A DNA stretch of 60,491 nucleotides, filler included, from Hausera hauseri (Eukaryota): NCBI GenBank assembly GCA_046269625.1. It is 11 parts of 11 records of this genome, joined end to end, with 100 filler letters (N's around TTAATTAATTAA, not from the genome) between each part and the next. Parts side by side here need not be neighbours in the genome. Positions count along the whole stretch, not along the records: positions 6,354 to 11,337 come from JBJURY010370704.1; 10 more parts are not named here. One strand, given 5' to 3'. The translations under genes and the position numbers were made by a program. Positions 2,951 through 39,452 of this stretch are shown one piece after another (the stretch's first letter is position 1; each line of letters begins with the position of its first letter). The notes beneath the pieces are model-generated. The model had not been told where the DNA came from and ran no database searches. It saw only the letters and a list, made by a program, of their open reading frames with translations.

Positions 2951-3914
2951 AGCTAGACTATTCTAATTAACAGCATAAGCATGTATCACAAAATATACCT
3001 TGTTGCAAAGTACGTAATAAACATATATTAATATCCGTTTGTGAAATATATGAATATTCTTCATTAATTAATACATGTAAGTTCTGATGTATGGTGGCAA
3101 GTGAAAACATGGTCTTTGAATGTTTAATTTTTGATTTCATAACGACCTGCACATCAGAACAACATTCTGCAACTATTATCAAGTGATACAATAAAAATAA
3201 TTTATACATAACCCACCCTATTCTATATATCGAAATGCCTTCGTGTTTTTGCTTATGTTAAACCCCCTGACGGATGTCTCCACCATTCCTGTAAAATGTA
3301 GATTATTGTTATTCAAGGAGGCAAAGTAATCAATTCATCAAATTTTCACCCGAGAATATTAGAATTATTGTCTCTTCATCTCTCAGATTTCCATTCATTT
3401 TATCCCATTTTATTTGGAACAAACATCAATAAAGCGTATCATAGAAATGCACAGGCGCCAATTTTGTATGAAGTATAGCACAAAAATCAAATAACCTATT
3501 CAAAATCGAATATATTTCTCTCGATTAATTAATAAATCAACACTGCATTAATTAAGTAAAAGTACAAGTCACAGAAGGATGGCCAAGATTTTAAAAATCA
3601 GAATTACCATACGGCCGGTGCCATTAACTAAAGCAACGGGGTCACCCGAATTCTGGAGAAGAAGCCCCAACTGCCGTCTAAAACTGTCGAAATCATCAAC
3701 TGTGTCAATCATACGCCGAATCACTCGCCGAATTTCTAAAAGACCAATGCCTTTCTAGAAACTGGATTTTTTCTTTGCAAAAGCAGATTTAAAAAATCAA
3801 ATATAAAAAAGAAAATATACACAATCTCGAGATATAAAAAAATTGCATAATATAGAAATACATGTGCCGCCGAGTCAATGCTTTTATATAAAGAATAAAC
3901 TTTAATCAATTTTA

Positions 3915-4870
3915 AATTTTCCAATTTGTTCAATAACTTTTTGTCAACTGTCTGGCAACTTCATGATTCCACGTTCATAAAACTTCTGATCCTTATCAAC
4001 AAAAGATTGAACCAAATGCGAATTTAGGTCATCATCATTAGTGTATATTTTACCATTCCATAAGTTTTACAAACTTCGAAATGAATGATAATCAGATGGC
4101 GCTGGATCAGGACACTATGGGGATGTAACATCGTTTCCCAATCTAGCTCCAATAATTTTACATGAGTTGTAAAGATGTATGAGGCCTCGCATTGTCTTGG
4201 TGGAACATGATTCCTTTGTGACTTGCCAAGTCTGGGCATTTCTCTTTGATTGCTTGCTCCAATTTCATTAATTGTTGACAATAAACATCTGAGTTTATCG
4301 TCTTGCTCTTTGGAAGTAGATCACAATACACAATACATTTGTAATTCCACCAAACTGACAGCATGATCTTTTTTGATACAATTCAGCTTTCAATGTGTTT
4401 TGTGCTGATTCATCACACTAGATCACGATCCGTTTTTCATCGACAGTGATGATTCACTTCAAAAAAGATCGCTACGTCAAATGGATCTCTTTGAAATTAT
4501 GCGGAATCCAAATGTCGAGCTTCTTAATAAATTCAATACATTTTAACTGATTTTCAATAGTTGTATGTGATACATATAACCTTTCTGCAATCTCTCGAAA
4601 AATTATTCAACGGTCTCTTTTAATCATAGCTCTGATTTGATCATCATCAACTTCAGTAGGTGGACCAGAACGTTGAACAACCTTGAGTGAGAAATCTCCA
4701 GACTGAAATATTTTATACCAATTTTGACACGGGCGTTTTGTTATACAATTAACACCATAAACGTCACATAGTCCATGTTTAAGTTGACGTTACACACAAT
4801 TTGTTTCTAACGTAAATTGCATTCTTTGAATAAATTGCATCATTTTGTTTTCTGTTCACATTTTAACTAC
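3915..4870 (-). mobile_element. Degenerate mariner transposase (mellifera-like)
   Basis: Motifs MLSVWWNYKCIVYCDLLP..TINSDVYCQQL, FHQDNARPH and GIMKLP..QKVIEQ, with multiple frameshifts. TIRs not identified. Confidence 0.85.
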
Positions 4871-6353: not shown

Positions 6354-6625
6354 TTTTCATCTAATAATTTTATTTGTGGGTCAGTACTCTGGATTACATT
6401 GCTTAAATCTGTTTGTTTAGACAGGTTTTGTTTCGGCATAATTATCTCAACTGGTGGTTGTATATCTGCTCGAATGGTTTCATAAGGATAATAGTACATA
6501 AGTATTATGTATCTGTATGTCCGTCCGTAATTTAATTCGCAACATTTCTTGTAGATTCCATAATCAAATTCACAATCTTTTATTTTCTCGCTATTTTGAT
6601 CGGTAAATTTTATTCGAATTCTCAT
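6354..6625 (-). CDS. Cys-containing accessory ORF downstream of Gypsy pol (partial)
   Basis: Starts 4 nt after the pol stop (MRIRIKF..DCEFDYGIYKKCCELNY) and runs off the contig. May be a frameshifted continuation of the post-integrase extension. Confidence 0.4.
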
Positions 6626-6628
6626 ATA

Positions 6629-9600
6629 TTATCTAGTAGCCTTATTAGTCTTGAACCAGATACATGGTTTCTTCCAGTCTGCGTCGTAAGCTTTCATTGT
6701 TTTAAGGTTTTCTACGTCTTTTCTTCCTTCCATAAGTCGTTGATCTTCCTTGATTTTTGCTTCTCCTGCATTCTTTTTGATTCCGTATACATCTGCTAAA
6801 CTAGATTCATCGTGCCACCATTGAGTCTTAGTCTTTGGAATATAAGAGGCGATTAATGATAATGCTAAAATTATCTGTACATTGGATACTGGTCTATTAA
6901 CTATAGCAGAGGTTTTTATTTTCTTATTTTGACTCGGGTTTAAATTCTGATCCTTAGATCGTAAATTATAATGCTTATTTGGTTTTATTTCTGTTTTGAC
7001 AACTCTCTGTATGGATACTACTTCTTCTTTTCCGCTTTTATTGATATATACGGTAGTTGGTGTAGTTCGGACAACCTCGTAGGGTCCTCTTCCAGTGCGA
7101 GTAAGTTTCAGGGACGTACCTTTCTTTGCTACTGGGTAGTGTACGTAAACCCAATCTCCTTTTTCTAAATCATGAGGTTTGGCTTTCTTATCATATTGTT
7201 TCTTGAACTGTTCTTGATATTCGAGGGTTAGTGTTTTCGCTATATCCCAGCACTTTTGTAATCTTGTTTGTAAAACTTCCGCGAAGTTAGGTTCTAAATC
7301 TTCCGGGTTTGCCTGATACGGAGTCATTCCTATGTCCGTAGGTAATATTGCTTCGCGTCCGTACATCATAAAGAATGGCGTAAATCCTGTGGCTGGGTGT
7401 GGGGTTGTATTGATAGCAAATTGCGTTCCTTCTAGGAATTCATCCCAATCCTTTTGATCCTTTGCGACCACTGTCGATAAGACTCGTATAACGGTTGCGT
7501 TCATACGTTCGACCATTCCGTTACATTGAGGGTGATATGCGGTCGTAGTTAATCGTTCGATTTCGAAAATTTTAGTAATCTTATCAAATAACTCGCTCGT
7601 AAAGTTTCTTCCTCGGTCAGTCAAGATTTGATCGGGAGGTCCATATCTGCAAATGATTTTTCTTACTACTGCATCTGCTAGAGTTTCTGCTTTCTGATCA
7701 ACTAGTGCTACTAATTCAACGAAATGTGTTAATCGATCTACACACGTCAAGATATATTTGTTGTTTTTATGGGTTGTAGGTAGTGGTCCTACTATATCCA
7801 TGGACATAGCCTGCATAGGCCTATCTGGCACGTTGATTGGTTTTAATTCGGCTATATAATTTTTCACTTTCTTTTGTTTCGTTGCACAAACTTCACATGC
7901 ATCTATCCAGTTTTTCACGCCGATATAGATACTAGGCCAATAATATTTATTCAATATTCTCTCCAATGTCTTTTTCCATGACATGTGTCCAGCTAAGTAA
8001 GAATCGTGTTCAGCCATTAATACTTCTGTTCGTAATCCTTTCGGAATGACTACAAGTTTCCGTCCTTTTCGTTCGTAATACAAAATATTATCTTGGTCTG
8101 ATGCATAGTATTTGTGTCCGTGCCTTTGTAGATGTTTCTTCAGCTGGCGTCCTTTTGGCTTTTCGTCTTGTTCGGCAAATTTGACTATCTGTTGAATAAC
8201 TTTATCTTTGGCTTGTTCTGAAGATATTTTGATCGTTTTATTCAGTGTCAAGGTACGCTGTCGTTCCACCAATTCTTCAAGTTGAGCTTTCTTCATTGTC
8301 GTAATAGTGCTTGTTTTTGTCTTAAGCCTTGATAAAGCATCTGCGTCAATATGCTTACTTCCGGGCTTATATTGAAATTCGATGTTGTACCGTGATATTT
8401 CTTCGATCCAACGGTTTAGTCTACACGTTGGGTTATTAGCTCGTCCTTTCAACGTTGTGACAGCCTTGTGATCGGTTACTATAATAATTTTCTGTCCGTA
8501 GACGTATACGTTGAAGTGTCTTAAGGCTTCTTTCACAGCTAATGTTTCTAGTTCGGTAACTGAATAGTTTTTCTCTGCTTTCTTAAGTGATCGTCCCCCG
8601 TATGCAATTGGATGTTCTAATTCTTCATCTTCTCGTTTTTGGGCCAATTCGTAGCCGATTCCTTCTTTGCTTGCGTCTGTTTTAATTATAAATGGTAAGT
8701 TGAAATCGGGATATCTTAATACTGGCTCGCTTGTTAAAATTTTCTTCATTTCATCGAATGCCTTTTGTTCCACATCGGTCCATTTCCATTTAATTCCCTT
8801 TTTTAATAATCGGTATAATGGCGCATTAATTTTCGAATTGTCCGGTACATAGGTGGCGTAATATCCGCATAATCCTAGCCAGTGTCTCAGTTCTTTCTGA
8901 TTTTGAGGCTCCATACAGTCCGATATTTTATTTAATAGAGATTTATCTGGTTTCGATCCTCCTTCTCCGACTATATGTCCGAGGTAAGATACGGCATTTT
9001 GTGCCCATTTACATTTCTTAGGATTTAATTTCAACCCCGCTTGCTCTAGTCGCATAAGAGTGTCTTCAATATCTTTTACATGTTCCTCTTCAGTTTTCGA
9101 CGCTATCATTACGTCATCTAAATACGCGAATGCGTGATCAAGTCCCATTAACATTTTATTCATCATCCTGGTAAATATAGCTGGGCCGGTTGTTATGCCA
9201 AATGGCATGACATTAAATTCATAGACTCCATCATGTGTTTTAAACGCTGTTTTATAACGATCATCTTCTTCGATTTCTACCTGCCAATAACCGGATTGTA
9301 AGTCCAGTGTGGTAAACCATCTTGCTCCTGACAGTCTATCTAATGCTTCCTTCACAGATGGTAGTGGAAATGAATCTTTCATCATCAGAGTATTTAGGGC
9401 TCTATAATCTATGCAAAATCGGTGTTTGGTAGTATCTTTCTTTTTAACCATCAATATGGGTGAATACCATGACCGGTAACTTGGCCGTATTATGTCGGCC
9501 TTCAGCATACGTTCTACTTCGGCAGTAATCTCCGGTCTTAATGAATGAGGTGGCGGGTACCATTTAGGCATTTTCTGTTCCTCTAAATCAATTTCCTCAT

Positions 9601-9907
9601 TGGAGCCAGGTTTCTTTTTTAGCGGTATTGTTAATCTCAGAGCCTTTGCTCGGCCTATGTCTTCTTCATTTTGGGCAATAATCGACTTGTATTTGCACAA
9701 AAGTTCGTAAAATTGACAATATACTTCTGGCGAAAATTTAGTTTCAACGTGAGGTGGAAATTCAGCATATTTGTATGGTTTCTCTTCGATCGTTATTGCT
9801 GATACTTTATAAGTGTGGCCCAATGTGGTATTGGCGTACAACTTTATGGGGGTCGGCGCATTATTTACCAACCTAATAGGGACTCGTCCTGTTGTTACTC
9901 TTGTCAA
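6629..9907 (-). CDS. pol: Ty3/Gypsy Pol (RT-RNaseH-integrase-GPY/F) with C-terminal hydrophobic extension; family A copy 1
   Basis: RT: RFCIDYRALN, LDLQSGYWQ, YLDD. RNaseH: TDAS..ELE..TDH. Integrase: HHCC (H..H..CEVC), DDE (SMDIVG, LTDRG, MVERMN), GPY. Uninterrupted 1092-aa ORF. Confidence 0.97.
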   Translation of the reverse strand: MTRVTTGRVPIRLVNNAPTPIKLYANTTLGHTYKVSAITIEEKPYKYAEFPPHVETKFSPEVYCQFYELLCKYKSIIAQNEEDIGRAKALRLTIPLKKKPGSNEEIDLEEQKMPKWYPPPHSLRPEITAEVERMLKADIIRPSYRSWYSPILMVKKKDTTKHRFCIDYRALNTLMMKDSFPLPSVKEALDRLSGARWFTTLDLQSGYWQVEIEEDDRYKTAFKTHDGVYEFNVMPFGITTGPAIFTRMMNKMLMGLDHAFAYLDDVMIASKTEEEHVKDIEDTLMRLEQAGLKLNPKKCKWAQNAVSYLGHIVGEGGSKPDKSLLNKISDCMEPQNQKELRHWLGLCGYYATYVPDNSKINAPLYRLLKKGIKWKWTDVEQKAFDEMKKILTSEPVLRYPDFNLPFIIKTDASKEGIGYELAQKREDEELEHPIAYGGRSLKKAEKNYSVTELETLAVKEALRHFNVYVYGQKIIIVTDHKAVTTLKGRANNPTCRLNRWIEEISRYNIEFQYKPGSKHIDADALSRLKTKTSTITTMKKAQLEELVERQRTLTLNKTIKISSEQAKDKVIQQIVKFAEQDEKPKGRQLKKHLQRHGHKYYASDQDNILYYERKGRKLVVIPKGLRTEVLMAEHDSYLAGHMSWKKTLERILNKYYWPSIYIGVKNWIDACEVCATKQKKVKNYIAELKPINVPDRPMQAMSMDIVGPLPTTHKNNKYILTCVDRLTHFVELVALVDQKAETLADAVVRKIICRYGPPDQILTDRGRNFTSELFDKITKIFEIERLTTTAYHPQCNGMVERMNATVIRVLSTVVAKDQKDWDEFLEGTQFAINTTPHPATGFTPFFMMYGREAILPTDIGMTPYQANPEDLEPNFAEVLQTRLQKCWDIAKTLTLEYQEQFKKQYDKKAKPHDLEKGDWVYVHYPVAKKGTSLKLTRTGRGPYEVVRTTPTTVYINKSGKEEVVSIQRVVKTEIKPNKHYNLRSKDQNLNPSQNKKIKTSAIVNRPVSNVQIILALSLIASYIPKTKTQWWHDESSLADVYGIKKNAGEAKIKEDQRLMEGRKDVENLKTMKAYDADWKKPCIWFKTNKATR

Positions 9908-11337
9908 AATATTACTGAGGATAATATTTGGATTAATGTCTTCTTGTGGCTCAAAAATACCGGTTGTTCGTCCTCTTCTAGAATTTGAGCGTAAATTAAC
10001 ATTTCAGTTCGCGGAGGTATGTTTTCGTCAACGGGAATCCATACTTCTCCTAATTTCCTTTCTTTCATTGTTTTAACTCCTTTTGCTGGTCCAAGTTCAA
10101 TCAATTTTCCAGTCTGTAAATTTATTGCAATGCTGGGTAGCTGTTTCAATATATCACAGCCTAATACTACATAATCGGTTAGCTGATCCATTATAGCAAA
10201 CTCGTGCTTAAGGGTTTGATCCATTAGATGAACTATGGGACTCCATTTAAATTTTGGCTTGGATTCTTGTCCGAAAGCTCCTATACTACTTGGATCTGAT
10301 GAGGATGCTGGTTGCAACTGTTTTCGTAATGTCGGCGGTATTGATTCTAGCTTGATAAATGATTTTTCCGAGCCTGTGTCCACTAAGGCATAAACTTCCC
10401 AGTCCTCAATGGTAACTTTTGTAAAGGGTCTTCCTTCCACAACTGTCCCGTAACAATTTGATACAGCTTTGGGGCGTCTAATCGTAGAAATCTTATGTCC
10501 GTTTATCGTTATTTCTGGTGATGAGACAATATTTTCGGTTAATTGCTTCAGTTCCTCGTTTGGGTATAAGTCGTTACTTACTATGGCGTTTTCATTGTTC
10601 CTGATTAATGGTTCTTGAATTCTTGAGTTTGGAAACGATCTCACTTGAGTTTCCCAGATCGTCGATTTGGATTTTATATTGCGAGGTATTCTTGATGAAT
10701 ATATTATTCCATGATCATCTTCTGCTCGTCGTTGGTTAGTAATTTGCATTTTCTTTAATACTCCATATTGTTTTGTTCCTTCATAAGGGTCTTCGAAACG
10801 GAAGGGTTCTTGGCAGAAGGCTGATCTATAAGACATAGTAGAAAATTTGTCACAATCTTCGTATATTGGGGCCGTCGGTGGCATGATAGGTATTGGTGCT
10901 GAGTACATTTTGTATCTATTTTGTAAAGGAAGCGCTTCTCCTCCCTCAGGCTCGTCATCATCTGAGCCATTTCTTCTAATTATCGTTTTCTTAGTTTTAC
11001 GTTTTGATAGAAAGAAAGGTCTTGACCGGCGTTTGTAATTGTGGTAGCCAACATGTCGTTCTACATCATTTTTCCATCGGTTTTCTTCGTAGGCCTTAAG
11101 CATTTTACCGAAGGGTGTGATAATTGCAGTTAAAATTTTGCAAGAAAATCCTGTTAGCGTAAATATTTCGTATCCATTTATAATCGCCTGAATTACGGCC
11201 TTTACTAATTGCACCATAAAATAGATTGCTAAGAATCCCGATGCGGCTTGTCCGAAAATTAAAAATCTTCCCCAAATTTTGTAGAGTATTTCCGTAGTTA
11301 CTCGTTGATAGTGATTTACTCCTAACAATGATTCCCA
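9904..11337 (-). CDS. Chuvirus-like glycoprotein C-terminus (TM) fused in frame to linker and retropepsin protease (5'-truncated)
   Basis: WGRFLIFGQAASGFLAIYFMVQLVKAVIQAIINGYEIF aligns with the C-terminus of the glycoprotein at 25145-25417. The same ORF contains the aspartic protease motif ALVDTGSEKSFI..VVLGCDIL. A 1-nt shift in a T-run near 9955 separates it from RT. Confidence 0.85.
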   Translation of the reverse strand, partial: WESLLGVNHYQRVTTEILYKIWGRFLIFGQAASGFLAIYFMVQLVKAVIQAIINGYEIFTLTGFSCKILTAIITPFGKMLKAYEENRWKNDVERHVGYHNYKRRSRPFFLSKRKTKKTIIRRNGSDDDEPEGGEALPLQNRYKMYSAPIPIMPPTAPIYEDCDKFSTMSYRSAFCQEPFRFEDPYEGTKQYGVLKKMQITNQRRAEDDHGIIYSSRIPRNIKSKSTIWETQVRSFPNSRIQEPLIRNNENAIVSNDLYPNEELKQLTENIVSSPEITINGHKISTIRRPKAVSNCYGTVVEGRPFTKVTIEDWEVYALVDTGSEKSFIKLESIPPTLRKQLQPASSSDPSSIGAFGQESKPKFKWSPIVHLMDQTLKHEFAIMDQLTDYVVLGCDILKQLPSIAINLQTGKLIELGPAKGVKTMKERKLGEVWIPVDENIPPRTEMLIYAQILEEDEQPVFLSHKKTLIQILSSVIF

Positions 11338-11960: not shown

Positions 11961-12285
11961 AAGAAGTAAAAGGAAGTGAGGACACTGGGCCAAACCTCCA
12001 GGGAGAAAAATTGATGTGGTTCGCGGATGAGTCATAAGGTAGAGAAAAAATACACACATACACGTTTAATAGAGCGTAGATGGGAGGTACACAGTTACGA
12101 AAGTGATACACACAAGAAAGCATACTGTATGGATTTGTAGTGGATAAAAAATTAAATTTCGCGCTAGCAAAAGAAAATATTGTTTAAATTTCGCGGTAAA
12201 AAATTTTGTTTAAATTTTTCTTTTAATATTGGTGGTTGAGTATAAATATAGGTGTGCAAATAACTTGACACTGTTTTAGCAAATA

Positions 12286-13572
12286 TTAGGTTGGCAACTA
12301 AGTAACTGCCGATTTAACACATAAATATCTGTGACTATCTTTTTTAAAGACTTCTGTCAATGTTATGATATTTTCCTTCTGACAATTGTTAGCCGTGACT
12401 CTTACCCTGCATTACAATCAAATTTGGCATATTTTTGTTTAAATTTGTCAACTTGGTGTCAATTTTAATATGGAGTGCAGAAACGAGCATTTTTGCCAAA
12501 TTTTACATTTTTATTTCCATAAAGGAAAGAACGCAGCGTAAGCAGCTAAAAGGTTATGTGATGTGTATGGTAAGGAAGCCTTAAAAGAAAGACAGTGCCG
12601 AAATTGGTTTAACAAATTTTGTTCTGGAGATTTTTCTCTCAAAGATGACCAACGTTCAGGTCGACCAGTTGAGCTTGATGATGACCGAATCAAAGTTATA
12701 ATCGAGTCGGATCGTCGTGGGACTGTGCGAGAGATTGCAGAGAGGTTGAATGTATCACATACATCGATTGAGAAACATTTAAAACATCTTCAACTCGCTA
12801 AAAAGCTTGATATGTGGATTCCACATGAATTGAAAGAAATTCATTTAACGAAGCGCATCAACGCTTGCGATTTGCATCTTAAACGAAATGAAGTCGATCC
12901 TTTTTTGAAACGAATTATCACTGACGGTGAAAAATGGATTGTTTGCGATAACGTCAATCGAAAAAAATCATGGTCCAGGCGTGATGAGCCACCGCAAACC
13001 ACTTCGAAAGCTGATATCCACCAAAAGAAGATTTTGTTGTAAATTTGGTAGGATTGGAAAGATGTGGTGTATTTTGAGCTGTTTCCAAGGAACCAAACGA
13101 TCGATACAAATATGTACTGTCAACAACTGGACAAATTAAATGCAGCGATCAACGAAAAACGGCCAGAAATTGTCAATCGCAAAGGTGTCACTTTCCATCA
13201 GGATAATGCTAGACCACACGTATCTTTGGTTACTCATCAAAAATTGATAGACCTTGATTACGAATTGATGTTACATCCACTATATAGTCCTGATCTAGCA
13301 CCATCATGTTACTATTTATTCCGATCTTTGCATAATTTCTTGAATGATAAAACTTTTGATAATTAGGACGCTGTGAAATCGCACTTGGTTCAGTTTTTTG
13401 CTGATAACGACCAGAAGTTCAACGAGTGTGGAATCATGAAGTTGCCAGAAAGATGGCAAAAGGTCATCGAACAAAATGGAACATATATCGTTGATTATGT
13501 TTCATTGCAAATATAAAAATAAAATCTTTTGTTTGTATGAAAAAATTGGCAATTACTTAGTTGCCAACCTAA
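12286..13572 (+). mobile_element. Full-length (1287 bp) mariner, mellifera subfamily, inactivated transposase
   Basis: About 30-bp TIRs (TTAGGTTGGCAACTAAGTAACTGCCGATTT / AAATTGGCAATTACTTAGTTGCCAACCTAA) with TA on the left. Motifs WIPHEL, FHQDNARPH, HPLYSPDLAPS, with in-frame stops. Confidence 0.95.
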
Positions 13573-16108
13573 CATATCTCGAGATCTCTTCAATCCATCT
13601 ATTCAACCTACACGTAGGGTTCTTTGCTCGTCCCTTTAAAGTTGTAACTGCCTTGTGATCGGTAACTATTATTATCTTCTGTCCATATACGTAAACGTTA
13701 AAATGCCTTAAGGCTTCCTTTACTGCTAACGTTTCTAGTTTTGTCACTGAATAGTTTTTCTCTGCTTTCTTCAGGGAGCGTCCTCCATAAGCGATTGGGT
13801 GTTCTAGTTTTTCATCTTTGCGTTTCTGTGCCAATTCATATCCGATACCTTCTTTACTTGCGTCTGTTTTAATAATAAACGGTAAGCTAAAGTCAGGATA
13901 TCTCAGTACCGGTTCGCTAGTTAGTATCTTCTTCATTTCGTCGAACGCCTTTTGTTCAATCTCGGTCCATCTCCATTTCATTTCCTTTTTTAGTAATCGG
14001 TATAACGGTGCATTAATGTTTGAGTTATCTGGTACGTAAGTGGCATAATAACCACATAGACCTAACCAATGTCTTCGTTCCTTTTTGTTCTGAGGTTCCA
14101 TACAGTCTGAAATTTTATTCAGTAATGATTTGTCAGGCTTAGATCCTCCTTCGCCAACTGTATGGCCAAGATATGACACGGCGTTTTGGGCCCATTTGTA
14201 TTTTTTGGGTATAGTTTTAACCCAGCTTGTTCTAATCTCATAAGAGTGTCCTCAATATCCTTCAGATGCTCCTTTTCGTCTTTTGATGCAATCATTACGT
14301 CATCGAAGTACGCAAATGCATAGCTGGTCCAGTGGTAATTCTAAACGGCATAACGTTAAATTCGTATACGCCATCATGAGTTTTAAACGCAGTTTTATAA
14401 CGATCTTCGTCTTCAATCTCTACTTGCCAATACCCGGATTGTAAGTCCAGAGTAGTAAACTATTTTACTCCTGAGAGTCTGTCCAAAGCTTCTTTTACAG
14501 GTGGTAGGAGAAAAATCCTTCATCATAAGAATATTCAACGCTCTATAATTGATACAAGATCGATGTTTCGTGGTTTCTTTCTTCTTGACCATTAGAATAG
14601 GTGAATACCAAGATCTGAAACTTGGTCAAATTATATCGGCCTTTAACATACGTTCTACCCCTTTAGTTATTTCCGGTCTTAGGGAATGCGGCGGCGGATA
14701 CCATTTTGGCAATTTCTGTTCCTCGAGATCGATTTCATCATTAGATCCGGGCTTTTTCTTAAGTGGTATAGTTAATTTTAACGTCTTTGCTCGGCCAATG
14801 TCTTCTTCGTCTTTTGCAATAATTGACTTATAGCGACATAATAGTTCGTAAAACTGGCAATAAGCTTCTGGCGAAAACTTCGTATCGACGTGTGGTGGAA
14901 ATTCGGCGTACATATACAGTTCCTATTCAACCGTTATTGCTGATGCTTTGTAAGTATGTCCTAGAGTAGTGTTAGCATATAATTTTACTGGAGTTTGAGC
15001 ATTATTCACTATTTTTACCGGTATTCGACCTGATGCTACTCGGGTCAATATTTTGCTCAGTATTATATTCGGGTTTAGCGTTTTTTTGGCTCGAAATATA
15101 CTGGTAAATCTTCGTCTTGACAGATTTGTGCAAAGATCAATAATTTCGTTCTAGGCGGAATGTTTTCGTTGACTGGAATCAAGACTTTTCCGGATTCTCT
15201 TTATTTACCTTAGTTCCTTTTATCGGTCCGAGCTCGATTAGCTTCGAGGTATTCAGATCTATCGCGACGTTTGGCAGACGTCTTAATACATCATATCCTA
15301 ATACTACGTCGTCTGTTAAGTGTTCCATTATAGAAAATTCATGTTGAAATGTCTGTCCCATTATTTTAAGAGTAGGATTCTACTCGAATTTCGGTCTTGA
15401 TTCTTGTCCGAAAGCTCCTATACTTCCGGGATCGGTTGTAAGTGGTAGTCGTAATTGATTGCGCAACGTTTTCGGTATCGATACGTCTTTTATGAATGAT
15501 TTCTCTGATCCGGTATCTACTAATGCGTATACTTCCCAATCGTCAATAAACAATTTGGCGAAGGGTCTACCTTCTTTTATCTTAGGTTGTTTAACGACTA
15601 ATATTTTGTACCCGTTCACGCTAATTTCTGGTGATTTATTCTGGGCTACTTGTCTTAATTTTTCAATGGGATACAATCCATTATTTACACTGTTTTCGTT
15701 GTTTCTATCCGGCGTATTGATTAGCGGTTCTTGGTTGTTTTGGTTATGGAAGGATTGCATTCGTGGATTATCCCATATTAATGATTCAGTTTCTATATTC
15801 CGCGAAATCCTTGGAAAGTATGTTACCTTGCGATCATCTGCCGGTTGGCGGCATAATTCGGATTTTTCCCTGGTTCGGTACATTTTCCGTAACACGCCGT
15901 ATTGTTTTGTCCCTTCATAGGGATCTTCATAACTGAAAGGCTTTCGATATATTTCCGAACTATAGGAGTTAATAGATCTCTTATCGCTGTCTACATATTG
16001 TCGTGCCAAAGGGGGTAGCATCTGTAAAGGCGGCCTAAGCGCCTTCCGATTGCTTATCTTGGAGACCGCGTCTCCTCCCTTAGGCTCATCATCATCCGAA
16101 TCGTTTTT
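13573..16108 (-). pseudogene. Gypsy family A copy 2: linker-protease-RT-RNaseH, frameshifted, cut by the mariner
   Basis: Near-identical peptides to 6629-11337 (ALVDTGSEKSFI, KWYPPPHSLRPEI, TDASKEGIG). Homology stops at EEISRY, at the mariner TIR. Confidence 0.93.
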
Positions 16109-16640: not shown

Positions 16641-18330
16641 TCAGACGTATCCATATGCTGTGCCAACTTAGCAGAGTTCTCATAAATGTCCTCCGTGTAG
16701 ATGTGATAGATAAAACTATCAGTATCCATATACATCAGCTGTATGTACTTGAATATGGGGACCATGATGTCATAGTGGAATTTGTACATCAAGGTCGTTG
16801 ACAGGTCCAGTATTGCCATACCCACATATGTGGGCTTGTTGAATTGCAAGGATGTTTTTGGCATATGGATGCTGACTACGTTCTCCGCATATATGGTGCT
16901 GCTGTGGAAGTTTGGCTTGGCAATGAGCTTCTTTACCCGCTTTCATTCAGAGACCAGTTCGATGTAGATCCTGTTGCGGATGTTTTCCATGATCTTGCCA
17001 AAACGCAGTTGTTGTAAAGCTTGAATTGATCCTTCTCAAAGTCGTTCTTGGCATTTTTTCGCAGCTTCGTATTAAGACCGATATATGGCTTCAGCCAGTT
17101 GGACTGGCTGAACTTCAGGGCCCGATGGATCTTAGTAATGCGGAGTCCATTGCTGACAGCTTGCTGGAGATTTATGTAATGGACTACATATCACTCCCTA
17201 TTATCCAGATGGCAAGGCAGCTTTCTATGCTTTCCATGGAGCGGAGACTTTCTCTCAGGGAGGAAAGGCAGCTGTTGATGCCTTGTGTGGATAGAAGCCG
17301 GATATTCCATATCCACCTCTAGTATGAAGCCAGGTCCAGTATAGGTATGTTTTCAGGATGCTCGACCCACTTGAAGTCATAATATGGCAATGGGACGCCC
17401 ATTACCCATCCATACAAGTCGTTGGCATCCAGGTATGATATATATGAGTATTCCTTGTATGGATCATACTAGGCCATATACTTGTTGTTGGCCTCACTAT
17501 ACCTATGAATGGCCTGGCATATTCCGCCTCTAATGTCTCTCTCAATCATGAGGATCATGTCGTAATTTTTTATGATCTGCATTCTAATACCGATATAGCG
17601 CAGAATAGCTGCTCAACTCATCCCTGGAGCCGTGAAGGAATGAGCTGAATCCAATGCATTGCTCTTTATCGTAACATCCTTAAAGCTGTCAAAAAGATTC
17701 GTCAGAAGCAGCACGTCCGTCTAGAGGTATATATAGCTGTATTCTCCTCATTTTCGGCATTGGAATGCATACCAGATGTTCTAAGCATGCTGGTAGTCCT
17801 CATCACTGATACCGCTATCTGAGAAGATATTGTAAAAGTCCTTCTTGGCCGGCAATGAGGTCTCGTCCAGTGTTCCCCATGATGTTATATAGTCATAGGG
17901 AAACACGCCTTTCTTTTAGCAAGGTCAAATGTAGTGGGGAAGAACCGCTTCGTCTCCTTGAGTTCATCTGCAGGGAGGTTCTTCACTAAACTGTCCAGTG
18001 AAAACGACAGGAAACGAAAGCTCTCTATGAATCGAAGTTTAATGCGGTCCACATAATTAGTGTAAGTGATATATTTCTCCACAATGTTTTGTATCACATC
18101 TATATTACCATCAATGTTGCCTAATTCACGGATTATTAAATGGGAATCATAGCCACTGAGATTATGGAACACTACAGGCACATACGTACATGTTTTGCAA
18201 CCTAGATTGCAGTTGTTTCATGCTGCCCCTCCATATGCACCTGTAAAATGGCAGTGATCCTTGACTTTATAATTATCCTCGGTGAAGGACTTGTCGCACA
18301 AGTAACATGCTGTTGCCTTGTGCTATTCTT
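16641..18330 (-). pseudogene. Polinton/adintovirus PolB, degraded
   Basis: PVVFHNLSGYDSH (exonuclease), YLDANDLYGW (motif A), YMDTDS (motif C), with many frameshifts. Confidence 0.9.
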
Positions 18331-19880
18331 ACTCTTGAAGTAATGATTAAACGTTTGTCGTTATATTTGAAGAATGTAGCCGCTGATGCTTATAACGAGC
18401 TTCCTAACGATGAAAAGAAATCTTGGTCATCCTTGGTAGGAGGATTGAACCGAAAATTATTGCCGACAGTAACATCGCAACAGAACTTATGGCATTTAGA
18501 AATAGGGTGAAACAGAAGGGTGAATAGATAACACAGTTTGCATTTGCATTAAAGAAACTAGCTAATGGTTATATGAGCACCTTGAGAATAGCTAATGTAG
18601 CAAAAACTAAAACCGAAGCTGAACGCGAACTCGCAGAAAAAGCAACTCCGTCAGATTTTGACATCATGATGGCGACGCATTTAATTAATGGTATTTGGTC
18701 CCGAGATTTAGTGAAACAGTTGATTTTGGCCAGACCTGAGAATTTTGAAAGGACTTTACAACTGCCCCAAGACTTAGAAATGGCACTTGATAGATATGAC
18801 AGACATAATGATAGAAATGATAGAAATAATAATCGAAATGGTCGTAACGATAAAAATCGCAATGATAATCGCGGAAGACATGATACACGATTTAAAAGTA
18901 ATAGAAATGATGAAAATAAAAACAGTAATAACGACTATGGGAATAGTCGAAACAATAATTATGTTATCGATCGAAATATGAATAAGTTGAATCCCAATTC
19001 GGATAGAAATCGAGGAAACTACAAAGGTTCTAATTATCAAAATCGTTACGATGATAATCAAAATAATGATAGTCGACGAAATATAGATAGTACGCAAAGT
19101 TTGCCGAACCGGTACAATAGAAGCACAAATATGTCTAAGTCACCTATTAATGAAGGCGGTAGACAGAGAGTCAACAGAAATGGAAATTTAGTTTGTTTCA
19201 CTTGCAGTAAGAAGGACATATTGCAATGTCATGTCCAAACCCGCGTAGCCTAATAAGACTAGTATGATCAACGTTAACGAGAACTTAGAAGCGAAATATG
19301 GTGTTCATGGAGATACAGGTACTATTATCGACATACACGATTTGCGAAAATTTCTAGACGCTTAGCCTGAGACTACTAATCCACAAATTCTGATGGCCAG
19401 AAGAGAGTACGGAGATAAACTAAGATTATTAGAGGTCTACCACGGTTTAGCCGAACCAGAAACAGAATACGAGCATGCTATAGCACCCAAGCTAATCGAT
19501 ATGACAGGGAAGAAGAGTATTCCAATAATTAATAAAACGGTAGAAAAACAAGGAACTTTGACATAAGTCGACTTAGATGCAGAGCCTGAGTTCACAATTG
19601 ATAAAGCAAAAGAGTATCGAAGACGATATAGCCAAAAAAGAATTTATGGAACCATTAATACTTAAAATTACGAAAAGTAGAGGCCATAGCTCTTGACTTA
19701 AGTCGAAACGTAGAATTCTTTCATTATCTCAAGTAACTAAAGAAAAATTAGAAGAAGTAAAAGATATTAAAATCGCTGTAGAAAGAGACGCAAGACCTAG
19801 TTTAGACACACCACGAATTGGTTTAAACCCATCGAGTTGGACAAGACCGTAAAGTCGATTAACGAAATTAATGAGGACAA
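18328..19880 (+). pseudogene. gag: Gypsy gag fragment (same family as 37665-39056)
   Basis: EVMIKRLSLYLKNVAADAYNEL..WSSL, an N/D/R-rich tract and the knuckle VCFTCSK.GH, colinear with the gag of contig 8. Confidence 0.88.
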
Positions 19881-20764: not shown

Positions 20765-23700
20765 ATGCCGTGTAATTCTTTACGTAACTTAGTAAGCAGT
20801 CGTATTTTTGTAATTCGAGATCCCTTTCTTAGTCACGCCAAGGGATTAACTGAATCCCTATTAAGTATTGTTTTGACAATGGTTTTGACACATAAAAGTT
20901 TACACATCTTGTAGGTAACATTAAATTTTATACTGCTCAATAAATAATCTTCGGCTATAGCTAAGGGTGTCGTATTTTAGCTTGCTGTATTTCTGTTTCT
21001 GTCATTTTGGTCAAAGCGCCTGGTGCTAGTATACAAATTAAAAGGAGAAAATACTTTATTAACCATAATATTTTGTTACTTGAGATCCTCGCAATTTTTT
21101 TCTCTACCATACTGCTAACATATCCCTGTTCATCATTCCTTAGTTTACTTTCTTTAGCCGCCGGTTTACATATATTAACATGAACTTTAAGTGTCGTATT
21201 ATTCTTTTTAAGGCTTATGTTGGGTACGTCTACCTTTTCCACTTCATACGGTCCTTTATATGGTCTATCTAGCTTTGATGTCTTGTCCTTTTGCTTAAGG
21301 GTGTGTATAACATCATTTTATCTCCTGGTTTTATTTTGGATTGCTTCGTTTTTTCACCATAATACTTCTTATGTTTTGTTTTATAATCTTTCTGATTATC
21401 CTTTACTATTTTGTAAGCTAACTGGAGTCTTTCTTGCATCAGTTGCTTGTACTCTTCTATTTCCATTAAATGAGAAGTAGGATTTACATTGAAATCCAAA
21501 TAAATTGGTAGTCTGGCATCTCTTAGATACATCAGGTAAAAAGGTGTCTCTTTTGTGGCTTCGTGTACTGACGTTCGGTTTACGAATACACAGGCACTGA
21601 TATATTTATCCTAGTCATCTTGTCTGGTATTGACAACTGTTTGTAGTTTACTTTTTAGGTCTCCAATATATCGTTCTACCATTCCGTTATTCTCAGGGTG
21701 TCCTGGTGTCGATCGTAATTTTAATATTCGCATAATGTCATAAATAGCTTGCATTACGTTTCCCGTCAAGTTTGATGCTTGATCCGTTAATAATATTCTT
21801 GGGTCTCCATAATTAAATATTATATTCTCCACGAATTTTTCGGCGATATTTCCCACCTTAATGTCCTGAATAGGTAATGCTACAACCCATCGTGTAAAAT
21901 AATCTAAAAATACTAGAATATATTTATTTTCGTTTGTAGTTAGTGGTAAGGGTCCGATTGTATCCATTGCTGTGAATTCGAAGGGGACTGGTGGGTTATC
22001 CCATACTTTTAAAGGGGCTTTGAATTTAGATCCGGTATTCTTTCGTGTGGCACATAGTTTACAGTTGTCACACCATTCCTGCGTATGTTTTATCATGGAT
22101 GGCCAAAAATATTTCCTTTTTAATTTATTAGTTGTCTTTCTTGATGATTGAAGCCGACCTAGTAGCCCGTCGTGATACTGTGTTAACAATATTGCTCTAT
22201 TTTTCTTGGAAATTACAAGGGCTAGTCCATTCTGATGAATGTAGTATAGAAATTCTTCTTTTTCTTCATATGCTTCGCCGAATCTGGCTAGGTGACGCGC
22301 AAGCCCTTTATCTGTAGGAATAATTCTGTTTTGCATAAAACTTCTGATAGCTTGTATCTCAATATCTTCCTCTTGATTTTCTTTTATCTTTTCTGGTGAT
22401 CCGTCCATACTCCATACTGCTGCTACTATAGCTTTATTCGTGTTTGATTTTTCTGGCATTCTCGATAGATAATCGGCATTCGCATTATGTGTTCCCGGTT
22501 TATATTGGAAATTTATAGTATATGGTTGCAATTTGAGAGCCCATCTTAATAATCGGCTATTTGGATTGTCGTGTTCTTTTAACCATTGCAATGGACGATG
22601 GTCAGTGTATATTACTAACGGTTTGTTTTCACTGATATAAGGTGAAAATATATTTAAAGCGAATATTACTGCAAATAATTCCTTTTCAATTGTTGCGTAT
22701 TTCTTTTGATGCTTGTTTAGCTTTTTCGATGCATATGCTACTGGATGTTCCTTTCCATCCTCGCATTTCTGTGATAATACTGCTCCCACTCCATAATCAC
22801 TTGCGTCTGTAGCTAATATGAATGGTTTATTCATGTCTGGATAAATTAGAATGGGGGCACTCAACAATTTTTCCTTAAGCATTTCAAATGAATTCTAACA
22901 TTCACTTGTCTATATTACCTGTTCTAAGTCTTTACAAAGTAGTTCATATAGCGGTTTGGCTATTTTACTGAAATCTTTAATAAATCTACGGTAATAATTT
23001 GCCAATCCTAAGAATCTTCGCAACTCTTTAACTGTAGTTGGCTTTGGGAAGTATTTAATTTTTGCAATTAATTTCTCTTGCGGCTTAACCCCATTTCTGT
23101 CTATCCTATGTCCCAGAAAGTTGACTTCTTGAGCAACTTAACATTTCTTGGGATTTATTTTGAGTCCCATTATTTCACATCTATCGAACAGATCCTGTAG
23201 ATCTTTTAGATGTTGTTCGAAATTTAAGGATGCAATTATTACGTCATCAATATATACCATCACATGTAATGCGTCCAGTAATAATAATTCAGTTCCTCTC
23301 TGAAACGTAGGTGGTCCGTTATTTAATCCGAAAGGCATTCTGTTAAACTCCCATAATTCTTCGCCTATGGAAAAAGCTGTCTTTTGTTTGTCTTCTTCCT
23401 TCACTTGTACTTGCCAATATTCTTTCTGTAAATAAATAATTGTAAATATTGTAGATCCATGTAATTTATCTAATATTTCATCTATGCTTGGTAACAGATA
23501 CGTGTCGGTTTCGGTAATTTCATTGAGAGCTCTATAGTCGATACAAAATCTCATTGCTCCACCTTTTTTCTTTACCATTACTACTGGGGCAGTCCATGGA
23601 GAACAGCTTGGTCGTATTATTTTATTATCGCTCATTTCTTTTATAATTTTCCGGGATTCTTCCTTCTTATCATACGCGAAGCGATAAGGCCGTTTCTTTT

Positions 23701-24829
23701 TTGGTTTATCTTGTCCGTTTTTTAGTTTAATAGAATGTTGTATAACATTCATAACTCCTAAGTCATAATCATTTTGTGCAAAGTGATCATTATTTTTTAT
23801 TAGGAGTTGTTGTAACTTAGTCTTTTCCTCGCCTGTCAAAACTTTACAGTCCTTTAGTTTCTCATCCCAATTGATAATACTAGTTTTACCTTTTGTCGCC
23901 CCTTTGTTCGTTGCGTTATTTAATTTAGCTTCCATCATTTTTTCAATTGTATCTACTTCTGAGATGACAGAATTAGTGCCTTCCCTAAAACTTTCTAGCG
24001 TATCTTCTGCTATTATTACACATCCCATTCTGGTATTCCTTCTTAGTTTCATTTCATTTCGTCCCGTGTTGCAAATCCGTAGATGGATTTTCCCGTTTCT
24101 TATTCTGTCTATATGAGGTGCTATGAGTATCTCATACTTTTCCATGGTTACTAGGGATGGTTCGAAGTATACGTTTTTACCAATAGATTTGCCTTCTATT
24201 TTTCCAGATACTACCATTTCAGAACGAGGTGGCATTACAATGTCCTTTGTCAATGACACTGCTCCATTATGCTGTTTCGTATTGAATCTTCTTATCTGAC
24301 CTGTACTTAAGTCGATGTAGGCATCTTCTAACTGATTCAGGACATCACATCCAATTAATATTTCATTTGTTAAACGTTTTGCCACAATTACAGTATGGTT
24401 AATTACTTGATTGCATATTTTAATTTTGGCATCGAGGACTGTCCTTATTTGTTCTTCAGTGCCAAATGCTGCGACGTTTATTAACGTCTCGGAAGGTTTT
24501 TTTAGTTTCTTTACTAATTCCGGGGGCAACTGGTTTCTTCCCATTATTGTGGTTGTAGATCCCGTGTTTATTAGAGCGATCATTGGGTACCCATTTATGT
24601 CAATCATTATTTCCGGCCTTGTTGATGACTGTTTTTCATAATCCTCACTTATTTTACAAGTGGTATCGCGATTATAGGGCATCGGGTTTTCGTCATAATT
24701 ATGTTTCATCCTTAATACTTGGTATATTGGGTACATTTCTTTCTGATCTGGAAGGTATTTTTGCTCTGGCGTTATTGATTCCATAAATCGGGGTGACGAT
24801 CCCGTATATTGGGGTGCTGTTGGAATCAT
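20765..24829 (-). pseudogene. pol: Gypsy family B pol (PR-RT-RNaseH-IN-GPY + hydrophobic extension) with nonsense mutations
   Basis: ALINTGS (protease, D>N), RFCIDYRALN, YIDD, ATDASDYG, AMDTIGPL, TDQA, MVERY. ORFs 23138-24829, 21611-22882 and 21269-21532 share one frame. Confidence 0.95.
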
Positions 24830-26639
24830 TACGGCTTGACAATTGTATTCATCGGCGAAATTTATTTTCGGTAATTGTGACAGTAATGTTTTCTTGTATT
24901 TTCGATTTCACGACGTCCATGAAACTCGCCTCAGTCTTTTTATATATTTATTGGTAGACTTACTTACATTTGGGGAAGTATTATTATTGTCATCCTCCTG
25001 TCCATTAAGCGTACTGTATGGTGAGTTATTCTCTAAATCTTTATTTTTGTCTTTGAGTATTCTTCTTTTTCATTTTGCGTCATGTCTTGCTAGAAAACAA
25101 CTATCTGCTGCTGGTATGAAGGCGATTAAACTTTTCCATGAGCATCAATCTGCTGCGTGGATCTCATAAGCTTTACTGAGAACTGTAAATATCGTTCGCA
25201 GTGTGCTAATTATGAAATATATAGCTAAAAATCCTGAGTCTCCTTTGCCAAAATATAAAAACTTTCCCCACATCTTTTCCACTACATTTCGAGTGACCTT
25301 TATAAGGTAATCTCGACCCATCAGATTTTCCCATTGTGGTGATCCTTCACCATCCCACATCACTTTTCTGGTTAATTCTGTTATTACTCGTTGTCGCTGT
25401 TGTGGAAATAACAGCATCCGTCTATATCTTCTAAATTCTGTTCGGTATAGATTTTTTCCTGGGGTATAACGGTAAGTGGTTCAAATTTATGATTTTTCTG
25501 TAAGTTTATTAAACTGAGTGTTTCGGGCGGTGTTACACGTTCCCGTTTCGGCATTCTTATCCATTGATCGTTTATCTTAAACATTGGCTACATATGTGCA
25601 ATTTATCAATAAGGTTGGCTTAACTTCAGCGTCTAAAAGAATTCTTGTTACTGGCATCACGTATCTTGGCTCGTTATTATAGTCCACCGGTAGTTCAGTC
25701 GTACATTCCGTAGTGGGTCTCAATTTAACTTCTACTTTCTTGCATTCTATTGTAATCAATACTTCACCCATAATCCTTCCAATTACTCCTTCGCCAAAGG
25801 GCATTACTGGTGCTACCATATCTGGATTAGTTATCACTACAGCCAGGTTATTCCTCATTATTTCGTAATTCAGCTTGCATTCGTTCATTATTATTTCTCT
25901 GTATAAACTTCTGATCTCTGTTCTTATCTAATTGATTAAGAAATCAATTTTGTTATCAAAATACTGCGTTAACTTTATATCCCTTTTATCTAATTTCATT
26001 CTGGCACCATGGATTTCTTTTAATGACAAATGTATGCCTTTGTAATTGGTTTTGGATATATCTTCATTACATTTTCTTATCGTTCCGGGAATTTTAAGTC
26101 ACATCATATCCTCAGGATTTTCTGAGTATAACACCGTAGCAACTTCCGTCATTCTTACGTCTTTTTGTCCTTCCTTAAAAGTAGCTGTTTCTTTTTCTGC
26201 TCTTTCCTACCGTTTTATTGAACTTTCCTTCTTTTAGTAACGTAAGATAGCATTTACCCATTGATACTTCCCACGTCATTTTAGATTCTCCGGTGTCGCA
26301 TTCGCCGTTTTCATACTCACATTCACTCATGGTAGTCATTATTTTGGTTTGGGAATCAAACAGTGCTTCATATTCTTTTAATTGGACTTGATAATCCTCA
26401 ATGGCAACTGTTCTTGGCGCGATAATACCTCCTACATCATAATTTATTCCAACATAATAGCCTTCACTAGATTTGTTAATCTTTCCAGCTATGAAAATTC
26501 GAGTGTATTTTATTTTATTCCGTACAGCTAGTATTTGAGCGTTTTGGACAGTGATCACTCCTATTTTAAATGCATCCTGACATTCAGCTCGTGAAATAAT
26601 TATCGGTTCGAACGGAGTTGTAGGCTCTACTATGGCAGA
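24830..26639 (-). pseudogene. env: Chuvirus/Jingchuvirales-type (class III, gB-like) fusion glycoprotein (env), upstream of protease
   Basis: Cys pattern and motifs typical of chuviral G: ISRAEC, CEYENGECDTGESKMTW, CKLNYEIMRNNLAVVITNPDMVA, GEVLITIECKKVEV..CTTELPV..PVTRIL, FKINDQW, IYT, LFPQQR, WGKFLYFG..GFLAIYF. Confidence 0.85.
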
Positions 26640-36793: not shown

Positions 36794-37664
36794 ATTAAGG
36801 GAGCAATATCTATTAGGTCTATATCCAATATTTCTATGTCGATATTACTTCGATTACTAACCGGTTTTTCTCTGAGCCGGTGAATCATTTCTAGGCGAAT
36901 TTCATCCATCATACATTCTAAACTGCGAGCTGCTCTCTTTAATTTCGGATTTGCTTCCAAAGTGGGCAATAATGTCTGAGCTTTATTGACTTTTAAGTTG
37001 ACTCTATCTTCATTTTTATTCCATCCTTCTGAAAATTCTACTCCGCTTTTGATCAATGATTCTAACTCCTGCTTCCATTTTAATAACGTTTCGGTTGAAA
37101 CTTCTTTGGATTGTTCTAAGTCAATTGCCTCAGCAAACTTCCCCTCACTACGCAGTTTCAAACTTTTATATAACTTTTCAGCGTATTGCTCCTTTCCGGA
37201 TATATCTACCTGTTCGATAATTTGTTTAAGCCTTTCTAGGTCAGACTGTAATATTTCTGACTTATAACGTTTGTTTCTCAATTTCATTAATTTATTGGCG
37301 TTTTTCCATGAATGTCGGACTTTCCACTTCTTGGGATCGAAATCGTCAATATTTGTTGTTTCTTCCTCACTAATGGCAAGTGGGCAGATCTCGTTAATTT
37401 CATTAGTTGAGTCTTCAGATTCCGCTACTCCGACAGGTGTGTAAACCAATTTCTGGTGTATCCAAACTATGGTCTGTGTCACCTCTTACAACGACGTTCG
37501 GGTTTTCCGTTTCTTCAATTTTTTCTCTGTTTATTTTGGAACGTAAACGACTTCTTCGCTTAATTTTTAAAGAAGGGCTACGACCTCTATTTTTCGTACT
37601 TTTTAGTATTAATGGCTCCATAAATTCCTTTTCTGCTGTATCCGCTGTATCATCCTCAGTGAGC
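36794..37664 (-). pseudogene. Frameshifted continuation of gag region (charged/coiled-coil, unknown function)
   Basis: ORFs 37415-37621 and 36794-37482 follow gag and are partly conserved in the copy at ~19600-19880. No protease motif. Confidence 0.55.
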
Positions 37665-39056
37665 TTAGCTACTTTTTCGACTAAACTCAGGATCTGCGTC
37701 TAAGTCGACTGCCGACGGTTTATTGCTTATCGGAATACTCTTTTTCCGTGTCATATCACTCCGTTTCGGTGCTATCGCGTGTTCATATTCAGTTTCTGGT
37801 TCTGCTAAGCAATGGTACACTTCTAGTAATCTCAGTTTATCCCCGCATTCTCTTCTGGCCATCAGAATTTGTAGGTTAGTGGTATCCGGTTGAGCATCTA
37901 GGAATTTTCTCAAATCCTGTATATCGATGAGAGTGCTTGTATCTCCACAAATGCCATACTTTGCTTTTAAATTCTCATTGATTCTAATCATACTAATCTT
38001 ATTTGGCTTAGTAAATGAGACATTACGTGAGTTTGGGCATGACCTTGATATGTGTCCTTCTTTGCCGCAAGTAAAACAAACCAAATTGCCATTTCTGCCG
38101 ACTCGCTGTCGACCGTCTTCGTTCACTGTTGACTTAGATCTATTTGCACTCTTATTAAACTGGTTTCGCAAACTTTGCATACTATCGGCAGTTCGTTTAT
38201 TATCATTGCTTTGGTTATCACCGTTTTGATTCGAGTAGTTTGGACCCTTATAATTTCTTCTATTTCCATCCCAGTTTGATCTGTTCGTATTAGCATAATT
38301 ATTACCTCTGCCATTTCTGTAACCGCCATTATTATTTCGATTCCCATAATTTCTGTTACCTGCAAATCGTCCATCGTCTCTTTCACGATTATCATTGCGG
38401 TCATTCCGATCATTATTCCTGTCGTTTCTATCATTATGTCTGGCATATCTATCTAGCGCCATTTCTAAGTCTTGAGCTAGTTGTAACGTTCCTTCAAAAT
38501 TCTCAGGTCTAGCTAAAATCAACTGTTTAACTAAGTCTCGTGACCAAATACAATTTATTAGTTGCGTCGTCATCATCACATCTAAATCTGGTGGTGAAGC
38601 CTTCTCTGGGGCGTCACGTTCTGCGTCCGATTTAGCTTTAGCTATGTTGGCTATACGCAATGTGTTTATATAACTGTTAGCGAGTTTCTTCAACGCAAAT
38701 GCGAATTGGGTTACTGATTCACCTTTTTGCTGTACTCTATTCTGAAATGCCATAAGCTTTTGCTGCGGCGTAACTGTTGGCAGTAATTTGCAATTTAATG
38801 CTCCTACCAGGGAGGACCAAGATTTCTTCTCGTCATTAGTGAGCTCACTATAAGTGTCAGCGGCTAAGTTTTTCAAATATAACGACAATCGTTTTATCAT
38901 TACTTCAGGAGTGAGGCTGGCACCTTCTGCGTGCAATTTATAAGTTCTCAAGAATTCATTAAGCCCGTCTAGGTCTTCATCATATGCTGGCAGGTTTAGA
39001 GAGTCAAAGGTAAAGATGTCCAGTTTCTGTGCTACTGGTGGATTATCAGTTGCCAT
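37665..39056 (-). CDS. gag: Gypsy-type Gag (capsid region, N/D/R-rich tract, CCHC knuckle)
   Basis: FQNRVQQKGESVTQFAFAL (MHR-like QxxxEsv) and CFTCGKEGHISRSC; lies downstream of an LTR and PBS. Confidence 0.92.
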   Translation of the reverse strand: MATDNPPVAQKLDIFTFDSLNLPAYDEDLDGLNEFLRTYKLHAEGASLTPEVMIKRLSLYLKNLAADTYSELTNDEKKSWSSLVGALNCKLLPTVTPQQKLMAFQNRVQQKGESVTQFAFALKKLANSYINTLRIANIAKAKSDAERDAPEKASPPDLDVMMTTQLINCIWSRDLVKQLILARPENFEGTLQLAQDLEMALDRYARHNDRNDRNNDRNDRNDNRERDDGRFAGNRNYGNRNNNGGYRNGRGNNYANTNRSNWDGNRRNYKGPNYSNQNGDNQSNDNKRTADSMQSLRNQFNKSANRSKSTVNEDGRQRVGRNGNLVCFTCGKEGHISRSCPNSRNVSFTKPNKISMIRINENLKAKYGICGDTSTLIDIQDLRKFLDAQPDTTNLQILMARRECGDKLRLLEVYHCLAEPETEYEHAIAPKRSDMTRKKSIPISNKPSAVDLDADPEFSRKSS

Positions 39057-39432
39057 TTTATTTACGTTATTTGGTTCTAAATTTGCTTTATTTGCTTTAG
39101 GTTTTTCGAGTGCTATTTTAAACTGTTTATTTTGTGCGAAAACGTCTTATTTAATCTTATTCTCGGAATTTGAAAGTTTATCTACCTTTTTTGTTTCTCT
39201 GTTTATATTTCTACGCGTTTCACGCATAGGTGAATTGTCTTTTAATATATGGTTTATTCCTGGCCTATCAATGTTTGTTCACAAGTTTTGTTTACTTATC
39301 CCCGTAAGAATAGCCTATATACCCAATTTAAATTTCCGATTTTGAAAAAATCAAATTACTCGATGTAATGGCGCTGTTCGCCGATGTGTAATTATTTAAC
39401 TCTGATACGTAAAGTTTAGCTAGGTACAGACT

Positions 39433-39450: not shown

Positions 39451-39452
39451 AA

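Follow-up and report, generated by a model that had tools for sequence, protein, structure and literature searches.

A decayed Ty3/gypsy copy from Hausera hauseri with an in-frame Env-protease fusion, and a putative second membrane protein after integrase in its relatives

Nematode endogenous retroviruses (NERV), said to have been described by Sacco et al. in 2022, reportedly have a continuous gag-env-pro-pol ORF. The env/pol order of NERV is cited as flipped in PMC13524379 (Chary & Hayashi, eLife), which describes GAG-ENV-POL Ty3/gypsy elements with a gB-type Env from flatworms, nematodes and bryozoans. The planarian Burro/GYPSM1 elements are giant Gypsy LTR retrotransposons of 25-30 kb; according to the text of Arkhipova & Yushenova (2019, PMC6431247), they have a single ORF of 4873 aa, in which env lies in the same frame as the gag and pol that flank it, and BCL2, ankyrin, MATH, BIR and RING accessory domains. 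With regard to arthropods, the text of PMC10084718 (2023) reports no clear Gypsy capture of a chuvirus glycoprotein.

The window, i.e. the whole 60,491-nucleotide stretch of Hausera hauseri DNA that was analysed, is made up of eleven contigs of 4.3-7.7 kb each, chained by N-TTAATTAATTAA-N spacers, and contains mostly animal transposon remains (mariner, DNA polymerase B elements, gypsy). The fusion locus, here family B, is on the minus strand of the contig at 6354-11337. Both ends of this contig are within coding sequence, such that the family B ORF breaks off where the contig stops, at 11337; the contig contains neither the family B ectodomain nor its gag or LTRs. The features of family B, of its sister copy, of a second family (A) and of a gag on another contig are as follows.

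11074..11316, minus: family B Env (chuvirus/gB-type glycoprotein), C-terminal membrane region (PF24664, E 3.5e-15)
11182..11265, minus: main hydrophobic segment, likely a single transmembrane (TM) helix (Kyte-Doolittle, rough insertion energy)
11098..11169, minus: a weaker, amphipathic second segment that likely lies against the membrane on its cytosolic side (Kyte-Doolittle, rough insertion energy)
10435..11073, minus: Env-protease linker, about 210 aa, coding, in frame (stop-free; pN/pS)
10138..10434, minus: retroviral-type aspartic protease, DTG at 10372-10380 (PF00077, E 1.1e-7)
9945..9965, minus: frameshift, of the copy or the assembly, between protease and reverse transcriptase (frame switch relative to 4 relatives; gaps in X1 contigs)
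8969..9448, minus: reverse transcriptase (RT), YLDD (PF00078, E 9.5e-39)
8387..8782, minus: RNase H region (PF17919, E 8.7e-35; PF17917, E 6.6e-32)
7529..8047, minus: integrase zinc finger and core (PF17921, E 2.7e-17; PF00665, E 8.3e-15)
6836..6880, minus: signal-like hydrophobic segment after integrase, family B, at the same position as in 12 of 14 relatives but weaker
6356..6631, minus: stop at 6629-6631, then 91 open codons, possibly a remnant of a second membrane protein
13556..16108, minus: older family B sister copy with linker, protease, RT and RNase H; a mariner insertion at about 12283-13574 cuts it
about 20765..26639, minus: family A, decayed, with Env ectodomain pieces, TM, linker, protease, RT, RNase H, integrase and a signal-like segment after integrase
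37668..39146, minus: Gag with a zinc knuckle, followed by non-protease sequence (PF00098)

The window also includes decayed mariner copies at 12283-13574, which has inverted ends and splits the family B sister copy, and at about 3880-4790, together with related copies of an element encoding a family-B DNA polymerase (16785-18306, 27138-29996 and 52805-56733, with PF03175 at 54421-55791), which is Polinton-like or similar. Fragments of a host nuclear cap-binding protein subunit 1 (MIF4G-like) are present at 43209-44832, where GC is higher; the best match to the fragment is 73%, and two echinoderm matches are at 46%.

An earlier note on this DNA had proposed that one stop-free ORF joins the glycoprotein (G) membrane region to the DTG protease. 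This was confirmed, since PF24664 (Monjiviricetes_fusion, aa 8-88, E 3.5e-15) and the RVP protease domain (aa 302-400, E 1.1e-7) share frame 9907-11337 on the minus strand, which is stop-free for 477 codons up to a stop at 9904-9906; the motifs WGRFLIFG, GFLAIYF and GYEI, which the note gave, are all located in it. The family B Env membrane region can be aligned with those of 22 fused relatives. The adjoining frame, 6632-10003, comprises 1124 codons from stop to stop, about 1092 of them below the point where the first ORF ends, and holds RT, RNase H and both the zinc finger and the core of integrase. The order PR-RT-RH-IN is that of Ty3/gypsy (Metaviridae-type) elements, and gypsy-type proteins are present among the closest Pol relatives and in the trees, which have no BEL/copia outgroup.

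The in-frame passage from Env to protease in family B, and the whole Gag-Env-Pol ORF in its relatives, resemble the arrangement given for Burro in the text of PMC6431247, as do extra domains in relatives, i.e. ankyrin and ubiquitin-like domains in P0122, ankyrin in the 4844-aa P0067, and a weak Bcl-2 match before Env in P0011. By contrast with Burro, which was compared by description only, the family B linker is short (about 210 aa), there is one protease, and ankyrin is absent between TM and protease. As with the gB-type GAG-ENV-POL elements of PMC13524379, a chuvirus/gB-type Env is upstream of pol in families A and B; Gag is upstream of Env in relatives, with the gag of the window being on a separate contig. 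NERV belong to a nematode clade, and one nematode Env row in the supplement of PMC13524379 is without the flatworm-type motif. The Anakin elements carry the same chuvirus glycoprotein family on an LTR retrotransposon (Dezordi 2020; PMC10084718), but, unlike family B, are BEL/Pao rather than Ty3/gypsy and are described from mosquitoes. The layout, in which the earlier note saw an unusual way to package Pol, is already published in the texts of PMC6431247 and PMC13524379, and families A and B are two more families of a published but unstudied class. By eye, an Env motif pattern is common to the relatives and family A and to the Schmidtea 'Platyhelminthes C1a' rows of PMC13524379; because the Schmidtea rows share the pattern, the element, which is an animal one, is likely to be from a flatworm. 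Six short Smed motifs from the same source had zero exact occurrences among the proteins collected.

The gag at 37668..39146, which is on a separate contig, may represent the 5' portion of a related element; the 12 matches listed for it are all to N-terminal ends in the P0128 cluster (37%, E 1e-18). Two related gag copies are seen in the window, at 36794-41424 and 18286-19563. In the former, acidic/coiled sequence follows gag instead of protease, and a C3HC4 RING ORF (40374-41081) upstream of this unlinked copy recalls the Burro accessory ORFs.

Database searches revealed that the fused layout is widespread among related proteins. A HMMER scan with the TM-protease ORF gave 66 matches; 18 were selected for length or for two matched stretches, and in 13 of these the glycoprotein is followed by protease. 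A Pol query against long proteins gave 136 matches (120 listed), mostly merged gene models, and PF24664 precedes RT in 10 of 14 that were scanned. Among 124 RT-bearing proteins collected, 15 have a PF24664-type glycoprotein, before RT in all 15 cases. A protease motif follows the glycoprotein in 26 of 75 homologs, the remaining 49 ending soon after the TM without one (free or fragmentary G). In intact relatives Gag-Env-PR-RT-RH-IN is one ORF, with Gag first in P0002, P0122, P0123 and P0126, and also in P0010 and P0017, which end before RT. The open frames of relatives are 2.5-4.8k aa (longest P0067, 4844 aa), and there are two clusters of near-identical members (n=21 and n=20; 3.7-4.0k aa).

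Because fifteen database polyproteins have the glycoprotein upstream of RT within a single ORF, some being recovered about 20 times, the layout is no artefact, as the earlier note had argued; its occurrence in the same order in family A and 26 database proteins likewise bears out the view that it is old and conserved. These observations bear on whether the junction arose as a chimera during assembly, or from a viral glycoprotein fragment nested beside an ordinary gypsy pol. The contigs are repeat-rich and 4-8 kb in length, run X1 contains only 54% of words, TM to protease is spanned by no single X1 contig, and family B Pol is on a long branch, all of which would be compatible with an accident of this type. 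Given the identical order elsewhere, an X1 depth that is high across TM, linker, protease and RT alike, and conservation of the linker in the sister copy, such an origin is nevertheless extremely unlikely.

The proposal that two families share an uninterrupted fusion holds in part. Family B is stop-free, and the TM-protease order and frame are common to family A, in which TM, linker and protease are in the same frame; however, there are three stops from TM to protease in family A. The Pol pieces of the two families are 39% identical. PF24664 is upstream of RVP in both. In the quick tree the family A RT groups inside the Env-before-Pol polyprotein clade with an SH-aLRT of 99, whereas the position of family B varies with the tree. 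In that quick tree of RT-RH, which kept 59 of 121 rows after dereplication, it is outside this clade on a long branch; in the RT-RH-IN tree, family B with P0167 is sister to the clade (97); and in a careful RT-RH-IN tree of 19 rows, from which P0073, P0164, P0176 and P0186 were dropped, family B alone has a group of 8 Env-before-Pol polyproteins as its sister (85/83, unstarred). It is thus likely that family B Pol is sister to the Env-before-Pol clade, with a placement that is unstable across trees.

Several other observations on the relatives may be mentioned. The polyproteins P0003, P0010, P0067, P0126-P0130 and P0135 each contain two to five protease-like motifs (DTG/DSG), of which some immediately follow Env and others come after integrase. 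A complete Gag-Env-Pol-membrane-protein polyprotein, P0002 (HBK71150.1), is annotated as a hypothetical protein in a MAG assigned to Flavobacteriaceae, the likely reason being animal contamination of the bin. P0139 (Logan) is a divergent single-ORF Gag-Env-Pol with another Env subtype, is outside the main clade, and is without the post-integrase protein. A search of viral contigs gave zero relatives; in metagenome contigs there were 12 loci at 27-42% identity, and zero matches to the Env or post-integrase queries.

The linker between Env and protease was compared with that of the sister copy (15383-16108). Amino acid identity is 51% over 168 codons, and synonymous sites are saturated (pS 0.73); pN/pS is 0.40 for the linker (bootstrap 0.31-0.50), compared with 0.20 for the protease and 0.06 for RT-RH. 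The pattern of substitution thus shows that the linker is under coding constraint. Constraint on linker amino acids in the Env/protease frame is not what would be predicted if the genes were fused but the proteins made apart, with splicing or internal starts yielding Pol or Gag-Pol without Env, and Env being short-tailed. Such separate production would avoid a 1:1:1 Gag:Env:Pol ratio, which on general grounds is wasteful for particle building, and joints in X1 contigs do skip parts of the element; yet these joints are of DNA type with non-splice ends. Moreover, relatives hold frames of 2.5-4.8k aa open, which is unexpected for read-through that is not needed, and single-ORF Ty3/gypsy elements are common. 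Taken together, separate production is improbable, and synthesis of Env and Pol as one chain is preferred.

How the joined protein is disposed about the membrane can be considered from 23 fused sequences, one further sequence lacking the anchor. The end of Env has a strong hydrophobic stretch (mean peak Kyte-Doolittle 2.0), followed by a second with a mean peak of 0.97 and conserved Lys/Arg and Pro, which is kept in 23/23. By a rough estimate, the mean insertion energy over 20 sequences is 0.8 kcal/mol for the main segment versus 4.5 kcal/mol for the second; in the family B copy the values are 2.5 (main, marginal) versus 3.8 kcal/mol (second). A single membrane pass with cytosolic protease and Pol is likely on this basis. 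Were the Env C terminus to cross the membrane twice, the downstream part would be lumenal and Pol would need another route to the cytosol. The conservation of the second stretch in all 23 sequences, and the difference of only 1.3 kcal/mol between segments in the family B copy, might be taken to favour two passes. By contrast, the mean of 4.5 kcal/mol for the second segment and its conserved Lys/Arg and Pro disfavour its insertion, RT and integrase must act in the cytosol and nucleus, and a cytosolic Pol would agree with the further signal-like segment that follows integrase; two passes are thus very unlikely. At the other end of Env, an internal signal-like segment lies right before the ectodomain in 15/15 relatives with the start located (18 tried).

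The window copy itself is not intact. The earlier note took it to be young, with a single 1-nt shift near 9955, a description that does not survive, there being at least two lesions and only 575 of 15,598 aligned X1 contigs being at least 99% alike (7,545 are at 90-95%). The element is of a high-copy family, and the window copy is not among its pristine members. A shift near 9955 is present as proposed, 4 relatives changing frame relative to the window at about 9950-9965, but it is not shared: all of the run X1 depth there (74.6/74.6, 3 contigs) is gapped relative to the window. Two of the three X1 contigs across the frameshift have at least 31 letters on either side, with 8 of about 525 pieces listed. 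Because each X1 contig crossing 9945-9965 has one gap relative to the window, the frameshift is private to the window copy or an assembly error, and is not a programmed feature. As to the 1092-aa RT-RH-IN ORF described as intact, RT, RNase H and integrase are indeed in frame 6632-10003, but its end is probably a premature stop: beyond 6629-6631 the Pol frame is open for 91 more codons up to the contig end, and the stop is missing from the X1 contig that has the greatest depth at this codon (219.6 of 232), so the Pol ORF is probably cut short. The window copy would be dead in cis, owing to the frameshift together with a stop that is probably premature.

The region after integrase is the less familiar part of these elements, the fusion itself being known from Burro. 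In 12 of the 14 complete relatives, i.e. Env-before-RT proteins that include integrase, the ORF runs past integrase into a signal-like segment, an ectodomain of about 100-390 aa and a C-terminal hydrophobic segment (P0002, P0003, P0067, P0070, P0122, P0123, P0126, P0128, P0129, P0130, P0135 and P0142); the extension is absent in P0127 and P0139. A post-integrase membrane protein is unmentioned in the Burro text of PMC6431247 (text only, figure aside). The main text of PMC13524379 is without the terms 'polyprotein', 'in-frame', 'fused' and 'fibronectin', from which it appears not to discuss processing or a post-integrase protein. In the literature searched, which included the main text of PMC13524379, nothing relevant was found on a fibronectin type III (FN3) protein in such elements.

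A unit of about 95 aa is repeated one to three times per protein in this region. A profile built from seven proteins also detects P0129 and, weakly, P0130, and gave no match to P0123, P0126 and P0142; a Pfam scan of 10 units returned no named family. When folded with a 10-sequence alignment, the P0122 unit is predicted to be a seven-strand beta sandwich (pLDDT 91.9), with FN3 as the best structural match (Z 10.7, rmsd 2.6, 86 residues aligned); the top 50 structural matches listed are all FN3-containing entries. The predicted structure thus assigns the post-integrase unit of the relatives to the FN3 fold, and most of the 12 extensions carry such units. Profile matches to FN3 receptors in the PDB (best E 9e-4) arise partly by construction, the units having been pre-picked on an FN3-like motif, and an ESM match of 0.88 to the unit is a lead only. 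In family A a signal-like segment follows integrase at 20964-21100. The family B post-integrase piece, which is truncated by the contig end, has no significant similarity to the FN3 unit profile (930/1000 shuffles score equally high; hhalign probability 0.25%), and a C..L...TY motif can be aligned between the piece and the unit with a score at shuffle level.

Overall, the locus is most probably a decayed copy of a Ty3/gypsy element of the Burro/GAG-ENV-POL type, in which Env-PR-RT-RH-IN is likely produced as a single polyprotein threaded through the membrane, Pol being likely cytosolic. During translation, Env and the FN3-containing type I protein would be threaded into the ER lumen, leaving Gag and Pol cytosolic, and host signal peptidase would cut after the signal-like segments that precede the ectodomain and follow integrase. 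Gag and Pol would then be tethered to the same membrane as Env and the FN3 protein. The protease domains may be brought together as Env trimerises and Gag assembles, whereupon the element's protease would free Pol and Gag, so enabling entry of Pol into particles without a Gag-Pol frameshift. The earlier idea of Pol as the cytoplasmic tail of Env stands insofar as the fusion is real and family-wide, but is incomplete, in that Gag is upstream in the same ORF and a membrane protein is usually present after integrase; with a second membrane protein in that position, Pol would be tethered at both ends.

In PMC13524379 the entry of elements with a gB-type fusogen alone is left open, herpes gB needing partner glycoproteins. 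A second membrane protein with FN3 domains, encoded at a conserved position within the polyprotein that also holds the gB-type Env, is a concrete candidate for such a partner. We tentatively suggest, as a possibility that is on balance doubtful, that these are flavivirus-style enveloped retroelements with two surface proteins, a gB-type fusogen located between Gag and Pol and a captured FN3 attachment protein downstream of integrase, both released by signal peptidase, with Pol doubly tethered. If so, the receptor-binding trigger, which gD/gH/gL provide for herpesvirus gB, would here come from the FN3 protein, and this would explain how retroelements with only a gB-type protein enter cells. The signal-TM-signal-TM layout leads to testable predictions on the processing of Gag, Env and Pol, and on their packaging without a frameshift.
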